Source: a virus (Duplodnaviria > Heunggongvirae > Uroviricota > Caudoviricetes). Taken from it: DNA of 14,170 bases. Under the pieces are notes generated by a model. It saw nothing but the letters and a program-made list of their open reading frames with translations. It searched no databases and was not told the origin of the DNA. The stretch lies in the IMG/VR virus record IMGVR_UViG_2526164691_000021, one strand, 5' to 3'. The position numbers and the translations under genes are program-made. Of this stretch, positions 7,737 to 13,859 are shown in pieces (the stretch's first letter is position 1; the number at the start of each line of letters is the position of its first letter).

Positions 7737-8597
7737 TTAGTAGGTTATTTTTGTTGCGAATAATTCGCCTTTTACGATGGCTGTTATGATATTTTTAGCA
7801 ACATCTTCTGATGCGCCAACCTTGATAAGGTCAGCAAGTATTTTGTTATTTACTTCTTTCCGGTGAGCTTTATCCTTTGCTCTACGCTCTTCTTCGTCCT
7901 TGATTCTTTTTTCTTCTGCTATTCTGGCTTGCTCTTTTGCTTCAGCCTCGCGCAGGATTCGTTCTGCCTCCTCCTGTGCTTTACGGCGTTCTGCTTCAAT
8001 TGCCGCATGCTTTTCTCTTTCAGCTCGTTCTGCTGCCTCTTTTGCTTCGCGCTGTGCTCGTTGCTCGGCTTCAATGCGTTCACGCTCTGCACGTTCCTCT
8101 GCGGCCTTAGCTTCTGCTTCTCGCCTTGCTGCTGCTTCAATTTCGGCTTTTGCCTTTGCTTCGGCTTCAGCTCTGGCTTTCTCTTCAGCTTCTCTTTTTA
8201 AGCGTTCTTCATGCTCTCGCTTTTCCTGCTCCGCTTTGAGTCTTGCCTCTTCTCTTTGGCGGTCAAATTCGCGATCCATCAAAATCGCTATTTCATGGTC
8301 AGACTCAATTTGCTTTGCGAGAGCTTCAGCTGCTGCCTTAGCTTCTTCTTCGGCTTTAATCCGCGCCTGTTCTTCCTCATAATCAGTAAGAGGCTGGCGC
8401 GCCTTGGCTTTCAGTTCATCAAGGCGATCGCGCACTGTCTTGCGGTTAGCATCAATTAGCTTTGGAATTTCCTTCAGTTCAGCAACAAGGTCTTTGCCAA
8501 GACCATCGAGATATGTTTTCGTCTGCGCAACTTTATACGCCAGATAAGCGATCTCCTTTCTGCCCTTTGCCGTTGTGATATCAGGCACAAAGGACAT
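7737..8597 (-). CDS. Hypothetical protein, 286 aa, with a long E/A/K/R-rich charged repeat region
   Basis: Long ORF; the central ~170 aa are EAEAKAKAE / ERAEREK-type low-complexity repeats, seen at DNA level as reiterated gcttc/gctgc units; no family recognised; weak SD at the called start. Confidence 0.55.
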   Translation of the reverse strand: MSFVPDITTAKGRKEIAYLAYKVAQTKTYLDGLGKDLVAELKEIPKLIDANRKTVRDRLDELKAKARQPLTDYEEEQARIKAEEEAKAAAEALAKQIESDHEIAILMDREFDRQREEARLKAEQEKREHEERLKREAEEKARAEAEAKAKAEIEAAARREAEAKAAEERAERERIEAEQRAQREAKEAAERAEREKHAAIEAERRKAQEEAERILREAEAKEQARIAEEKRIKDEEERRAKDKAHRKEVNNKILADLIKVGASEDVAKNIITAIVKGELFATKITY

Positions 8598-8746: not shown

Positions 8747-8967
8747 AGAAGATTTCCAATAATCAGAACAAGTCGGCTCCTGTTTAGTTACGAGCGACAT
8801 TGCTCCGTGTATTCACTCGTTGGAATGAATACACAGTGCAGTGTTTATTCGTATGCCTGTCTTTTAACCACATCAGGCTCGGTGGTTCTCGTGTACCCCT
8901 ACAGCGAGAAATCGGATAAACTCTATTCACCCCTACAGAGAGAATGATGGAGATTCTGGATTTGCCC

Positions 8968-9873
8968 CTATATTTCCAGACACCTGTTATCACTTAACCC
9001 ATTACTGGCTTGCTGCCGTAGATATTCCCGTGGCGAGCGATAACCCAGTGCACTATGCGGATGCCATTCGTTATAATGCTCGAACGCCTCTGCAAGGTTC
9101 TTTGCTGCCGTTAACCCGTCTGGTTTGGGCATGACACTGATGTAGTCACGCTTTATCGTTTTCACGAAGCTCTCTGCTATGCCGTTACTCTCCGGACTCC
9201 GCACCGCCGTGCTCTTCGGTTCAAGCCCCAACATCCGGGCAAACTGCCGTGTTTCATTAGCCCGGTAGCATGAACCATTATCCGTCAGCCACTCTACTGG
9301 AGACGCCGGAAGCTCGTTGCCGAAGCGGCGTTCCACCGCTCCCAGCATGACGTCCTGTACTGTTTCACTGTTGAAGCCGCCCGTAGTGACCGCCCAGTGC
9401 AGTGCCTCACGGTCACAGCAGTCCAGCGCGAACGTGACTCGCAGTTTTTCTCCGTTATCACAGCGGAACTCGAACCCGTCAGAGCACCATCGCTGATTAC
9501 TTTCTTTCACAGCCACTCTGCCTGTATGTGCCCGTTTCGATGGCGGTACAGCAGGTTTTCGCTCAAGCAACAGCGCATTCTGGCGCATGATCCGGTAAAC
9601 ACGTTTGGCATTGATCGCAGGCATACCATCAAGTTCTGCCTGTCTGCGAAGCAGCGCCCATACCCGACGATAACCATACGTGGGCAGCTCTCCGATAACA
9701 TGGTGTATACGGAGAAGCACATCCGTATCATCAGTGTGACGACTGCGGCGGCCATCCATCCAGTCATCGGTTCGTCTGAGAATGACGTGCAACTGCGCAC
9801 GCGACACCCGGAGACAACGGCTGACTAAGCTTACTCCCCATCCCCGGGCAATAAGGGCGCGTGCGCTATCCAC
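8968..9873 (-). CDS. insD: IS2 transposase OrfB (InsD), normally made as an InsCD fusion by -1 frameshift
   Basis: 301-aa ORF with IS3-family DDE transposase sequence matching IS2 InsD; overlaps the insC 3' end in the -1 frame. Confidence 0.9.
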
Positions 9874-10196
9874 TTTTTTGCCCGTCCATATTCAACGGCT
9901 TCTTTGAGGAGTTCATTTTCCATCGTTTTCTTGCCGAGCAGGCGCTGGAGTTCTTTAATCTGCTTCATGGCGGCAGCAAGTTCAGAGGCAGGAACAACCT
10001 GTTCTCCGGCGGCGACAGCAGTAAGACTTCCTTCCTGGTATTGCTTACGCCAGAGAAATAACTGGCTGGCTGCTACACCATGTTGCCGGGCAACGAGGGA
10101 GACCGTCATCCCTGGTTCAAAGCTCTGCTGAACAATTGCGATCTTTTCCTGTGTGGTACGCCGTCTGCGTTTCTCCGGTCCTAAGACATCAATCAT
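9831..10196 (-). CDS. insC: IS2 OrfA (InsC), HTH regulatory / transposase N-terminal protein
   Basis: 121 aa starting [41 protein letters not shown]…; the track ORF extends 15 codons upstream, but the IS2 protein starts at the ATG at 10196. Confidence 0.9.
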
Positions 10197-10296
10197 CTGC
10201 TCTCCAATGACTAGTCTAAAAACTAGTATTAAGACTATCACTTAAATAAGTGATACTGGTTGTCTGGAGATTCAGGGGGCCAGTCTAGATTCACCG

Positions 10297-10836
10297 ATGA
10301 GTAACTGGTGGCAGGAACTATTACGTTTCTTCCTGCGTGGTCTTACGCTACAACAGTTAATTCATATGCTTATTATTTTAATTGCCTTGATAATAATCAC
10401 CCCAGCATCAATTAAAGAGTGGGTAGATATAAGGAACCCCGAAATACTTCCAGATCACTGGATGTATTACGCAATGCTTTTGTGTATCAGTTATGTTCTG
10501 AACAGGGGGATGGAGTTTATATTTCTGGCATCTTCAGACAGATATAAAAAATATCTCAGTAAGAGAGATGAGGCTAAAGTAATTGTGGAGACTGAGCGCC
10601 TATTCAATTCTCTGAGTATTCAGGAAAAAGAGGTTTTAGCATTTGCTGTTATGGCAAATAACAAAATCGTACTTAAGCACGGCGATCCGGTCGCTTTATC
10701 TCTTATGAGAAAAGGCCTTCTCCATCGCTCAGGTGTGACTTACAGCGCGTCAGGTAAAGAGAAATTTGTTATACCTGACGTCTGGTTCCATGAGTGTTAT
10801 ATGCGCTTTGCTGGTAAAGCTGATGAGCTAATTTAG
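10297..10836 (+). CDS. sieB: SieB-like superinfection-exclusion membrane protein (putative), 179 aa
   Basis: Two N-terminal hydrophobic helices (LIHMLIILIALIIITPA, WMYYAMLLCISYVL); size and position next to N, on the strand opposite the pL operon, match sieB of lambdoid/Rac prophages; family call from memory, unverified. Confidence 0.45.
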   Translation: MSNWWQELLRFFLRGLTLQQLIHMLIILIALIIITPASIKEWVDIRNPEILPDHWMYYAMLLCISYVLNRGMEFIFLASSDRYKKYLSKRDEAKVIVETERLFNSLSIQEKEVLAFAVMANNKIVLKHGDPVALSLMRKGLLHRSGVTYSASGKEKFVIPDVWFHECYMRFAGKADELI

Positions 10837-10859: not shown

Positions 10860-11132
10860 TCACCTCGCTGTCAGTTGTTTTGATTTCCGGTAGCCTGCCG
10901 CGTAAATGGCTACGTTTGGAAGACAAGTTGAACCTTCATATTTTCTGGTCAACGTTGTCAGAGTTATAACTTCTGCTCTCATTGCTGGTTTGCGCTTGCA
11001 TTGCAAGACCACTCGTGAAGGGGTTGGCCTGTGTAGCTTGTCGGAGCTAATCGCCTCCTGACTTTGCAGGTTTGCGCGACGAGCTCTACGGCGAGAAGCT
11101 GCGGTGCCTTTAAATTCTGTTTTTCTGGACAT
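10860..11132 (-). CDS. N: N-like transcription antiterminator, 90 aa
   Basis: N-terminal arginine-rich motif (KGTAASRRRARRANLQSQ); C-terminus …IYAAGYRKSKQLTAR resembles P22 gp24 / phage 21 N from memory; ATG at 11132 with GGGAGGAA SD (the track ORF starts further upstream); lies downstream of nut-like boxA/boxB. Confidence 0.65.
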   Translation of the reverse strand: MSRKTEFKGTAASRRRARRANLQSQEAISSDKLHRPTPSRVVLQCKRKPAMRAEVITLTTLTRKYEGSTCLPNVAIYAAGYRKSKQLTAR

Positions 11133-11230
11133 AGATTCCTCCCGAATAAACTTTGGCGATGCAATCTCGAAGCTCCTCCTGAGACGGTTACTTCGGCATT
11201 GCATCCCACAGCTTATGTGGTTGGGTGATC

Positions 11231-11277: not shown

Positions 11278-11322
11278 TGCCAGTCTGCTCCGTTTGGCTT
11301 ACAGCGTCCTGCTGATGAGTTG

Positions 11323-11372
11323 ACTTTATCGAAATGATAAACTGATGGCAATAGCAAAATGATAAATTGTTT
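11323..11372 (-). promoter_or_regulatory. oL/pL candidate: promoter TTGCCA-N17-TAAAGT overlapped by the dyad operator TTTATCGAAATGATAAA
   Basis: Perfect 17-bp dyad TTTATC-N5-GATAAA at 11325-11341; related AAAATGATAAATTG at 11358-11371; -35/-10-like hexamers on the - strand at 11351..11346 and 11328..11323. Confidence 0.4.
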
Positions 11373-11540
11373 GGGTTTTCAAATATCCTGTTGATTATTA
11401 TGGTTTTTTATTTGATTGCGGGAATTTATCAGAAGGAATGAAGAGACTTGAGGGGGATCAGAATTTCGTGGTTTAGAAAGTTGTATCTATCAATTTTTCA
11501 ATAAATACAATTGGTTAAGGTGTTATTAGGTGTGGGGATC

Positions 11541-11575
11541 GTGAGGCAAAGAAAACCCGGCGCTGAGGCCGGGTT
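11541..11575 (-). terminator. Intrinsic terminator at the end of the cI operon (tIMM-like)
   Basis: 8-bp GC-rich stem AACCCGGC / GCCGGGTT (11554-11561 / 11568-11575) with 6-nt loop, followed on the - strand by UUCUUUG. Confidence 0.5.
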
Positions 11576-11582
11576 CTGTCAT

Positions 11583-11723
11583 CTAACTTAAGTATCAAGC
11601 CGCTTTTTGTGAATGATTGATGTGAGCTTCAAAGTCGCGGCGTAGATTTTGAACGCGCTCTACACATCCGCGCATTTCAGCCAAAAGCTTACTAACGGCA
11701 GTATAGTCAAACGCTTTAGTCAT
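11583..11723 (-). CDS. Small hypothetical protein, 46 aa (MTKAFDYTAVSKLLAEMRGCVERVQNLRRDFEAHINHSQKAADYLS)
   Basis: Hand-translated; ATG at 11723 preceded by GAGGGG SD, 15 nt after the stop of the 120-aa gene; followed by the terminator above; not in the ORF track. Confidence 0.4.
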
Positions 11724-11738
11724 TTTTTTTCCCCTCGT

Positions 11739-12101
11739 TTAAATGTAAGGCTCAACATCAAGGGCTGCTATTGCTGCGCACAATGCGTCAGGATCGTCAG
11801 CATCGATGGCTTGAGCCAGGTCATTAGCCAGTATAAGTAACTTATCGATGACAGCGATTTCGCTGGTCTTATCTACACGAAAGTATGGGAGCAGAGCATT
11901 ACATACGTCTCTGAATGTCCGTAATTCTGCGACAACGTTCGAAAAGGTAGGATCTTTCTTACGAAGATCCACCAATGGCGCTACTTTAGCTGTTTTCAGC
12001 ATTGCACTAATCTCGCCAATCATTGTTCCATGCAGACGATTAAATTCATCAACAGCTCGGTCATGCAAGCTCTTGTTGATTGGCAATACGTTTTGGGTCA
12101 C
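11739..12101 (-). CDS. Hypothetical protein, 120 aa, in the cI-linked immunity-region cargo position (where lambda has rexAB)
   Basis: GTG start at 12101 with AAGGAG SD 8 nt upstream; predicted helical, acidic; no family recognised. Confidence 0.55.
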   Translation of the reverse strand: MTQNVLPINKSLHDRAVDEFNRLHGTMIGEISAMLKTAKVAPLVDLRKKDPTFSNVVAELRTFRDVCNALLPYFRVDKTSEIAVIDKLLILANDLAQAIDADDPDALCAAIAALDVEPYI

Positions 12102-12369
12102 TAACTATACTCCTTATATAGGTGTTCGCCAACAGATTTTCAATATGACTTGGGCGATTTCTGAACAATAAGCACGATTTAGCAATGATTAATTGATGTT
12201 AAGCACAAATATCTCTACATCGTGCATTTTTAACTATTTATACACATAAAATCTAATAAATGGATATAAACCTTATGATGATTTTTCTCAATCGAATTGA
12301 ATAATGATCTCTATCACATCACCCAAACGTCTCTTCAGGCCACTGGTTACCAGCTATGTGACGATGAAG

Positions 12370-13074
12370 TCACGAACTTTTCAGCCACTCCCTTGCCTCG
12401 ATGTCATCCAGATGGCGAGATTGCTTCAGAATACCAGCCACATACTCCACCTTTGCTACTTGATGATAAGGCAACGTTATTGGCCTGTGGTCCTGGTTGA
12501 TGCTTGTAAATTGGTATTCTCCATCTCTGTCATAGCCAAGAACTTTGATCATGTTGTGTCCTTCAACAGTTCTGACAAACACCTCATCCCCCGGGAATAC
12601 TTTGGTGTTAGGCTCAATGAGTACATATTCTCCTGATTTTATTCTGGGCCACATGCTGTCTCCTTTCACACGAAGACCAAAGGCATCTGGATCATCGCTA
12701 TAAATATTGAGCCACCCATCGCGCTCTTCGGTCATCTCGATGGCACCATCAACACCAAGAATTGCCTCACCAACCACGCGCACTAACCCTTTTCTTACCT
12801 GACCGACAAAAGTTAAAGAATCTGAGCATGATGCAATTGGTGTTACATCATGTACCAAATCAAGCCACCCATTAGGTAACCCAAGTGCGGCTTCGAATTT
12901 TCTTGCTAGTTTATCCCCTATGTTTCGAGTGCTTTTTTCACCGGAGACTTGCGTGAGTTGAGAAGGGCTAACTCCAAGCTTATCGGCAAAGCTTGCATTA
13001 GTGTTACCCGCGATTTTTTTATGCTCATCTAGCAAAAACGCCAGATTCGATTTGCGAATATCTTTGTTTTCCAT
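12370..13074 (-). CDS. cI: CI-type prophage repressor (N-terminal HTH, C-terminal S24 LexA-like peptidase domain), 234 aa
   Basis: N-terminal HTH region (…ASFADKLGVSPSQLTQVSGEK…) and C-terminal GDSMWP … MIKVL Ser/Lys motifs of the autocleaving S24 domain; divergent from a cro-like gene across an operator region. Confidence 0.9.
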   Translation of the reverse strand: MENKDIRKSNLAFLLDEHKKIAGNTNASFADKLGVSPSQLTQVSGEKSTRNIGDKLARKFEAALGLPNGWLDLVHDVTPIASCSDSLTFVGQVRKGLVRVVGEAILGVDGAIEMTEERDGWLNIYSDDPDAFGLRVKGDSMWPRIKSGEYVLIEPNTKVFPGDEVFVRTVEGHNMIKVLGYDRDGEYQFTSINQDHRPITLPYHQVAKVEYVAGILKQSRHLDDIEAREWLKSS

Positions 13075-13092: not shown

Positions 13093-13160
13093 TTTAGCAA
13101 ATGGATAAATATGCATTTTGATAAATCTTCATTGCGTTTTATTTATCAAAATGGTAAAGT
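13093..13160. promoter_or_regulatory. oR/pR (and presumably pRM) region with repeated operator-like dyads
   Basis: TTTAGCAAATGGATAAA (13093-13109) and TTTATCAAAATGGTAAA (13142-13158) fit the TTTATC-N5-GATAAA pattern seen in oL; inverted repeat CATTTTGATAAAT / ATTTATCAAAATG (13114-13126 / 13141-13153); candidate pR TTGCGT-N17-TAAAGT at 13132-13160. Confidence 0.45.
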
Positions 13161-13187: not shown

Positions 13188-13421
13188 ATGAGTAATGAAC
13201 TACTACGCTGGCGAAAAGAGGCTTCTAGTGAGGAATGGAAGCGACTCGCCGCATTAGCGAATACTTCAGTTGGCTATCTTGATCAGATTGCATATGGGTT
13301 TCGAAGAGCTTCCCCAGATAAAGCGAATGCAATCGAAGAAGCCACTCGTAATTTCACGGGTTATAAACCTGTGAAAAAGGAAAATCTGGTGTTCGTATCG
13401 CGTAGAGCATCAGCAGCATAA
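13188..13421 (+). CDS. cro: Cro-like HTH regulator of the YdaS (DUF1019) type, 77 aa
   Basis: Divergent from cI; GGAGG SD; …LAALANTSVGYLDQIAYGFRRASPDKANAIEEATRN… resembles Rac YdaS (…AIERATRG…) from memory. Confidence 0.65.
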   Translation: MSNELLRWRKEASSEEWKRLAALANTSVGYLDQIAYGFRRASPDKANAIEEATRNFTGYKPVKKENLVFVSRRASAA

Positions 13422-13559: not shown

Positions 13560-13859
13560 ATGGAACAAACAAGTTACAGCAAACTATCACAGCGTGATGT
13601 TGATCGCGCAGAAACAGATTTACTTATCAACCTGTCAACGCTTACCCAGCGCGGTCTGGCAAAGATGATTGGCTGTCATGAATCGAAGATAAGCAGAACG
13701 GACTGGAGATTTATTGCTTCGGTCTTGTGTGCTTTCGGAATGGCATCAGACATCAGTCCGATTAGCAGAGCTTTTAAGTATGCGCTTGATGGACTCACCA
13801 ATAAAAAACGCCCGGTGTGCAAGACCGAGCGTTCTGAACAAATCCAGATGGAATTCTGA
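13560..13859 (+). CDS. cII: CII transcriptional activator, 99 aa
   Basis: C-terminal …LTNKKRPVCKTERSEQIQMEF matches the lambda CII C-terminus (…TNKKRPAATERSEQIQMEF) from memory; HTH in the middle; positioned between cro and O. Confidence 0.9.
   Translation: MEQTSYSKLSQRDVDRAETDLLINLSTLTQRGLAKMIGCHESKISRTDWRFIASVLCAFGMASDISPISRAFKYALDGLTNKKRPVCKTERSEQIQMEF

Follow-up and report, generated by a model that had tools for sequence, protein, structure and literature searches.

The sequence analysed here (the window) is a stretch of 14,170 nucleotides (nt) from the virus record IMGVR_UViG_2526164691_000021, and covers the left arm of a lambdoid Escherichia coli prophage, integrated beside ybhC, together with its immunity region. 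Directly downstream of its cI repressor gene (12370-13074, minus strand; 234 amino acids (aa), with Peptidase_S24 and helix-turn-helix domains in Pfam and a match to PHROG 4) lie two small genes on the same strand, here called A (11739-12101) and B (11595-11723). They are preceded by an AT-rich leader of 217 nt (12102-12318) and, next to cI, by a relic (12319-12357) of a lambda-type cI gene, derived from its 3′ end, and are followed by a homologue of the terminator Timm (hairpin and U-tract, 11547-11577), all on the minus strand. Comparison with related loci shows a two-gene cargo cassette, or 'moron', that is self-contained and moves horizontally; it consists of A and B in the cI-to-Timm slot of this prophage and extends over about 11578-12318 plus Timm.

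Gene A is an open reading frame (ORF) of 120 aa that starts with GTG at 12101, 8 nt behind the Shine-Dalgarno sequence AAGGAG (12110-12115), and stops with TAA. Exactly 15 nt past this stop, and behind a Shine-Dalgarno sequence of its own (GAGGGG, 11731-11736), gene B starts with ATG at 11723 and runs for 42 aa to the TGA at 11595-11597. An earlier note, made from the sequence alone, had described this arrangement with a Shine-Dalgarno sequence before each gene and 15 nt between them, which agrees with our reading; its length of 46 aa for B does not stand, and this figure, as well as a start coordinate of 11583, apparently arose because the TGA was read through to the next TAG. In the window A and B share one reading frame, with the TAA and five codons between them. 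Read-through of the stop codon of A was considered and dropped, as A and B do not share a frame in Proteus phage Pm34; in the window the shared frame is probably a coincidence.

The relic and Timm are, by alignment of the loci, the conserved 5′ and 3′ junctions of the cargo slot. The relic lies directly after the stop codon of the prophage's own cI and translates to ...IAGNQWPEETFG with a stop behind it; the lambda-type cI of two other prophages (L013 and L022) has the C-terminus ...VIASQWPEETFG. At the other end, the terminator folds into a 10-bp G+C-rich hairpin (11552-11577) followed by UUCUUUG, with −18 kcal/mol; a simple terminator scanner missed this hairpin, which was recovered by folding. 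The intrinsic terminator that the earlier note had placed before oL is there, and it is a known element: positions 11535-11575 are 100% identical to the 'Timm' of phages HK542 and HK244 and to the same element in H-19B, and many phages encoding Shiga toxin (Stx) match as well. In the immunity-region records of HK542 and HK244, Timm is described as similar to the lambda terminator of the pRM, pRE and pLit transcripts. Timm closes the cI-A-B unit, and is a common terminator of the slot, not private to the cassette. An inverted repeat (11439-11458 and 12318-12337) was also considered as the ends of the cassette and was rejected as chance (80% over 20 nt), the real junctions being the cI relic and Timm.

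Between these junctions the cassette has been combined with very different immunities. The S24 repressors that precede it form at least 20 clusters at 90% identity, and every one has the G-x-S-M motif; homology among loci with different cI genes extends from between −221 and −256, relative to the start of A, up to the terminator. In L013 and L022 lambda cI itself precedes the cassette, which sits exactly at the position of rexAB; the distance from cI to A in these lambda-cI loci is 217 nt, and on this comparison the 217-nt leader is the cassette's own and travels with A and B. The converse case is AU5Stx1, a deposited genome of an Stx1-converting phage, with a cI that is 99% identical (233 of 234 residues), a cro of the same size, and the same relic and terminator stem, between which lie about 330 bp of unrelated sequence and no cassette. 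Since a phage with nearly the same cI lacks the module, the cassette behaves as optional cargo. The cI-N hotspot was reportedly described by Degnan et al. in 2007. The interval is a mosaic hotspot for exclusion cargo expressed in lysogens, such as rexAB and bstA (PMC8585504; PMC7067206). In many other loci (L007:4568-4771, L009:4553-4759, L023:4657-4860 and others) an ORF of 65-78 aa on the opposite strand lies between the module and N; this ORF is not present in the window.

The two genes of the cassette are inseparable in the material that we surveyed. The earlier note had raised the question of co-occurrence beside cI in other prophages, and the pair is indeed conserved together: these adjacent, co-directional small genes co-occur in every locus examined. 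In all 41 loci taken from collections of phages, genomes and viral contigs a B homologue follows the A homologue, and this order also holds in each of the more distant contexts examined, where identity falls to about 30%. The gap between A and B in the 41 loci is 6-37 nt; in those loci whose mechanical ORF call begins early, the two overlap slightly. Both genes are under purifying constraint by the usual measure, as the ratio of nonsynonymous to synonymous divergence (dN/dS) is 0.04-0.07 for A between pairs of cassettes with synonymous sites near saturation, and 0.07 for B at deeper divergences. Moreover, pairing, lengths and C-terminal motifs of A and B are retained to about 30% identity, across Enterobacterales and beyond. 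The cassette is also internally mosaic: between the window and an Enterobacter-type cassette (L003), synonymous divergence is 1.19 in A and 0.14 in B, so the 3′ part, comprising B and Timm, was seemingly exchanged recently. In one metagenomic contig (L053:287-1305) an A homologue has a 70-aa N-terminal extension and a 4-nt overlap with a DUF6932 or Pol-beta-nucleotidyltransferase-like gene, a single case which may represent a different partner for A.

Association with lysogeny is not confined to lambdoid phages. Two distant A homologues (30-34% identity), each with its B, lie between a P2-type C repressor and the integrase in two P2-like lineages, a position inside the lysogenic operon. Further A homologues were found after an ImmA/IrrE metalloprotease gene, beside an integrase, and after zot in a filamentous prophage. 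No repressor was in view in Xenorhabdus, in a contig of a metagenome-assembled genome of Saprospiraceae, and in a Serratia locus with an Arc/TraY-like neighbour. Among 50,697 phage records the module occurs only in Proteus phage Pm34, where gp25 is the repressor and the next two genes, gp26 and gp27, are A and B; it is absent from the true plasmids searched. Besides E. coli, the genera with the cassette include Citrobacter, Enterobacter, Serratia, Pantoea, Hafnia, Proteus, Xenorhabdus and others. Because unrelated phage lineages put the same pair after a repressor, we argue for a role in the lysogenic state that is independent of any one immunity circuit.

Protein A is acidic and predicted to be helical, in agreement with the earlier note. 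Its isoelectric point (pI) is 4.9, and it is acidic in every lineage (pI 4.3-4.9). The AlphaFold2 model (predicted local distance difference test score (pLDDT) 82, predicted template-modelling score 0.72) is a bundle of four to five helices, at residues 5-40, 43-47, 53-73, 79-101 and 104-115, and with a maximal 19-residue Kyte-Doolittle value of 1.22 the protein has no transmembrane segment. In the family alignment conserved positions are nearly all hydrophobic, Ala or Pro, and K39 and D115 are the only widely conserved polar residues; this composition of the conserved positions suggests that A is a binding protein, not an enzyme. Conservation peaks at the C-terminus, in the motif L(C/G)xAIAALDxxPYI. 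On the alignment we also rejected a HEPN-like toxin, as neither Rx4-6H nor any other catalytic motif is conserved. A belongs to PHROG 13858 (function unknown, E value 5e-73), and its family is small: 33 relatives were found among 1.84 billion representative proteins, of about 110-150 aa except for three obviously spurious or extended sequences. The literature searched contained no mention of the RefSeq accession of A.

Protein B matches PHROG 12503 (function unknown, E 2e-26), and its relatives are all hypothetical proteins of 37-44 aa from Enterobacterales. In the AlphaFold2 model (pLDDT 92) it is one long amphipathic helix from residue 7 to 41, with a nearly invariant Cys (C20) in the hydrophobic seam, and it has no transmembrane segment (maximal 19-residue Kyte-Doolittle value 0.34). 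In the window B ends in -QKAA. Among 27 distinct variants of B, 25 end in Ala-Ala and 18 in KAA. When C-terminal tags were screened without bias in E. coli, terminal Ala-Ala emerged as the critical feature of ClpXP degrons (91% of the top 100 had it), with a preference for tags of neutral or positive charge (PMC10862746). We infer from the tail that B is a candidate ClpXP substrate.

Searches for known families gave no assignment, in line with the earlier note, which had recognised none. Neither protein has a match in Pfam (E up to 1) or in NCBIfam, PADLOC gave none either, and comparison with solved structures returned generic helical-bundle similarity only, without an informative match. When 31 A homologues were scanned against Pfam (E up to 0.1), no family was matched by more than two of the 31, and all matches had E values of 0.002 or weaker. 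Profile matches to sequences in the PDB (designed helical bundles and coiled coils) were dismissed as homologues, as they reflect composition. By Pfam, NCBIfam, PADLOC, structure comparison and alignment alike, A has no recognised toxin fold or catalytic motif. The search for homology and structure that the earlier note had proposed leaves two proteins modelled as helical and without homology to a known protein.

The interval of 268 nt between cI and A (12102-12369), noted before as AT-rich, has a GC content of 27-31%, against about 45% in the flanking genes. A scan of its coding strand found no terminator-like site, and read-through from pRM and pRE into the cassette is therefore plausible, as for rexAB. 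Conservation in the final 45 nt of the leader is far above that of the coding sequence: when the window is compared with a divergent locus (L035), positions −21 to +11 are 97% identical and the proteins just 48%. This block contains two overlapping sigma-70-like elements on the minus strand, P1 (12115-12143), with TTGAAA (12138-12143) and TATATA (12115-12120) 17 bp apart, and P2 (12104-12132), with TTGGCG (12127-12132) and TATAGT (12104-12109) at the same spacing, and the Shine-Dalgarno sequence of A sits between their −10 boxes. In nine divergent leaders the hexamers of P1 and P2 and the exact 17-bp spacing are retained while the spacer sequence varies, and P1 is recognisable in Proteus phage Pm34 and Xenorhabdus as well. 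A promoter scan reported P2 but not P1, and consensus sites are no more frequent in the window than in shuffled sequence. For the separate promoter suspected by the earlier note, then, the conserved hexamers speak in favour, and the position over the Shine-Dalgarno sequence and start of A and the lack of excess in the scan speak against it; we treat P1 and P2 as putative promoters. Farther upstream, about 140 nt before the start of A, a −10-like box (12237-12242, minus strand) lies in the context TGTGTATAAAT without a recognisable −35, and divergent leaders, when aligned, retain the block GATTTTATG(T/G)(G/A)TATA, a weak and unscored signal. A structured leader or small RNA was also considered and rejected: single-sequence folds vary between loci, Rfam gave no match to the leader at gathering thresholds and noise alone below them, and the sole element from RNAalifold was a 6-bp hairpin, without covariation, whose loop holds the Shine-Dalgarno sequence.

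The surroundings of the cassette are those of a lambdoid immunity region. The order of the window is int, xis, early-left genes, an IS600-like insertion, sieB (10297-10836, plus strand), N (10860-11204, minus strand), oL, the cassette, cI, a cro-like gene (13188-13421, plus strand, 77 aa) and cII (13560-13859, plus strand). Operator-like repeats of the TATCnnnnnGATAAA type confirm the placement of oL and oR on either side of the cassette-cI region: those of oL (11327-11367) mark the boundary of the immunity region on the N side and belong to a repeat family related to those of oR (13095-13159). Positions 11304-11574 are 86% identical to the region of H-19B/ST2-8624 that bears the OL1-3 annotation. 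The gene at the cro position has no Pfam family and weak PHROG matches to transcriptional repressors, and RefSeq labels it hypothetical. The IS3-family (IS600-like) element occupies 8784-10241, between sieB and a gene for a Glu/Ala/Lys-rich repeat protein (7737-8597) that is a 'TolA' pseudogene in RefSeq. Positions 11300-12400 were found at 100% identity in 89 of 5,426 complete E. coli genomes, in which both cassette ORFs carry the RefSeq label 'hypothetical protein'; many of the 89 are O26:H11 or O103 Shiga-toxin-producing strains or isolates from poultry or cattle. The cassette is present at 101 places in these 89 genomes, and some hold two or three copies, presumably as separate prophages in one cell.

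The closest precedent for this organisation is rexA-rexB of lambda. The architecture that the earlier note had compared with lambda cI-rexA-rexB-tIMM is borne out by L013 and L022, which carry the cassette in place of rexAB. Both pairs use the same slot, orientation and terminator element, consist of two genes co-oriented with cI, are optional among phages of identical immunity, and are exchanged at conserved junction sequences. RexA of lambda has 279 aa, and RexB is a membrane protein of 144 aa with four transmembrane segments. There is, however, no sequence similarity, and A and B hit no RexA or RexB family in Pfam (E up to 1); the PHROG families to which they belong are different ones. In contrast to the multi-pass RexB, both A (120 aa) and B (42 aa) are predicted to be soluble, helical and without transmembrane segments, and the A-B cassette has its own 217-nt leader. 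BstA of prophage BTP1, which is expressed in the lysogen, likewise is cargo directly downstream of a repressor, closed by its own Rho-independent terminator, in the mosaic hotspot (PMC8585504; PMC7067206). BstA differs in being one large protein and in having a self-immunity element encoded in DNA, and no homology to A or B was detected.

From these data we favour a reading in which A and B are cargo expressed in the lysogen, and in which A, an effector that works by binding, is controlled by a labile B so that the outcome is exclusion, abortive infection or prophage addiction. The reading draws on the slot and its mobility, the link to lysogeny beyond lambdoid phages, pairing and selection, the binder-like A, the degron-like B and the precedents in the slot, and we hold it tentatively, at somewhat less than an even chance. 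According to this model, the cassette would be expressed in the lysogen by transcripts that read through from the repressor promoter, with a probable contribution of its own conserved promoter-like element. A, an acidic helical bundle without conserved catalytic residues, would bind a conserved host or phage protein, and B, a 42-aa amphipathic helix, would dock on A and control it. The (K)AA tail would make B a ClpXP substrate, and the balance between A and B would then need continued synthesis of B. Loss of B, when another phage infects or the prophage is lost, would free A, and freed A may cause exclusion, abortive infection or post-segregational addiction, by a toxin-antitoxin-like logic. 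A more specific version, in which this is a new two-protein immunity or addiction system where a ClpXP-timed 42-aa helix gates a non-enzymatic acidic bundle that sequesters a conserved host or phage protein via the invariant AIAALDxKPYI tail, and which lambdoid, P2-like and filamentous phages recruited separately, is conceivable though rather doubtful.

Likeness to type II toxin-antitoxin systems is partial. In Phd-Doc, a system of this type, the antitoxin is degraded by ClpXP. Shared features are small adjacent genes on mobile elements, probably translationally linked, and a short helical partner, here B, with a degron-like tail. On the other side, A has no known toxin fold or catalytic motif, B has no DNA-binding domain, and the order of A and B is the reverse of that in most type II systems. 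Several observations weigh against the model that we favour. Type II toxin-antitoxin systems do not typically place a large gene before a small, putatively labile one, nor do they usually lack a DNA-binding antitoxin, and A and B match none of the families of PADLOC-DB v2 even at E values up to 10. As for the degron, terminal Ala-Ala by itself is not always enough for strong degradation, and the antepenultimate residue of B is Lys, whereas Leu is preferred (PMC10862746). Moreover, the P1 and P2 hexamers overlap the Shine-Dalgarno sequence and start codon of A; transcripts from them would begin at or after the Shine-Dalgarno sequence and would therefore lack the ribosome-binding site of A. Since B has its own ribosome-binding site, such transcripts could be translated into B, hardly into A. 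In lambda, pLit makes a message for rexB only, and, speculatively, a message from P1 or P2 might resemble it.

The main rival is that A and B tune the prophage's own lysis-lysogeny switch, through repressor stability, induction or exit from lysogeny, as recently proposed for RexA. The place of the module next to a lysogeny repressor or an integrase fits this, and a small ClpXP-labile protein could serve as a timer tied to the SOS response or to proteolysis. However, the adjacent repressors are unrelated, comprising S24 cI proteins of at least 20 immunity types, P2 C-type repressors, ImmA-linked ones and those of a filamentous phage, and because they are biochemically unrelated one partner pair is unlikely to recognise them all; in addition, AU5Stx1 has the same immunity and no module. 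Modulation of the switch is weakened by both points, and we consider it unlikely. That both ORFs are chance or decaying sequences without function might be supposed from the lack of family annotation and the very short B, and is scarcely credible: with dN/dS of 0.04-0.07 at saturated synonymous divergence, and with pairing, lengths and C-terminal motifs retained at such distances, the selection and conservation data exclude it.

Two further explanations start from likeness in size and charge only. In TomB-Hha, a type VII-like pair, the upstream gene likewise encodes an acidic helical protein (about 120 aa) and the downstream gene a small helical one with a conserved Cys; by analogy, A and B could modulate host physiology or virulence and alter gene expression of the lysogen. 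Sizes, gene order, charge pattern and the nearly invariant C20 of B resemble tomB-hha, and the E. coli cassette is concentrated in Shiga-toxin-producing strains of O26/O103 type and in livestock isolates. Yet A and B have no match to the HHA or YbaJ/TomB families of Pfam (E up to 1), neither HHA (PF05321) nor YbaJ/TomB (PF10757) is among the 25 families with the most matching members in the scan of the 31 A homologues, and B, at 42 aa, has half the size of Hha and is modelled as one helix, in contrast to the four-helix fold of the 72-aa Hha; a profile of B against the H-NS coiled coil was insignificant (E about 4). We regard a TomB-Hha-like role as improbable. The other explanation takes A as an Acr-like anti-defence inhibitor that shields the prophage or incoming relatives from host immunity, with B as its regulator. 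It gains from a small, acidic A without catalytic residues and from the compact unit with its own leader and terminator, but B has no helix-turn-helix and is too small for an Aca-type regulator, there is no structural match to known inhibitors, and a position in the lysogeny operon of P2-like and lambdoid phages suits maintenance or defence over early anti-defence expression. Such a function carries little probability.

The rexAB genes are the oldest known prophage exclusion system, and the A-B cassette is a third, unrelated occupant of the cI-to-N slot after rexAB and the more recently found BstA. Cargo that is expressed in the lysogen from the cI-N interval was already known; both protein families and their combination are uncharacterised and lie outside the catalogued defence and toxin-antitoxin systems. 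Natural pairs of phages with the same immunity, with and without the cassette, allow clean isogenic comparisons. If A and B are a defence or addiction module, they would be a very small, non-enzymatic system of this kind, in which the putative degron on B is directly testable.

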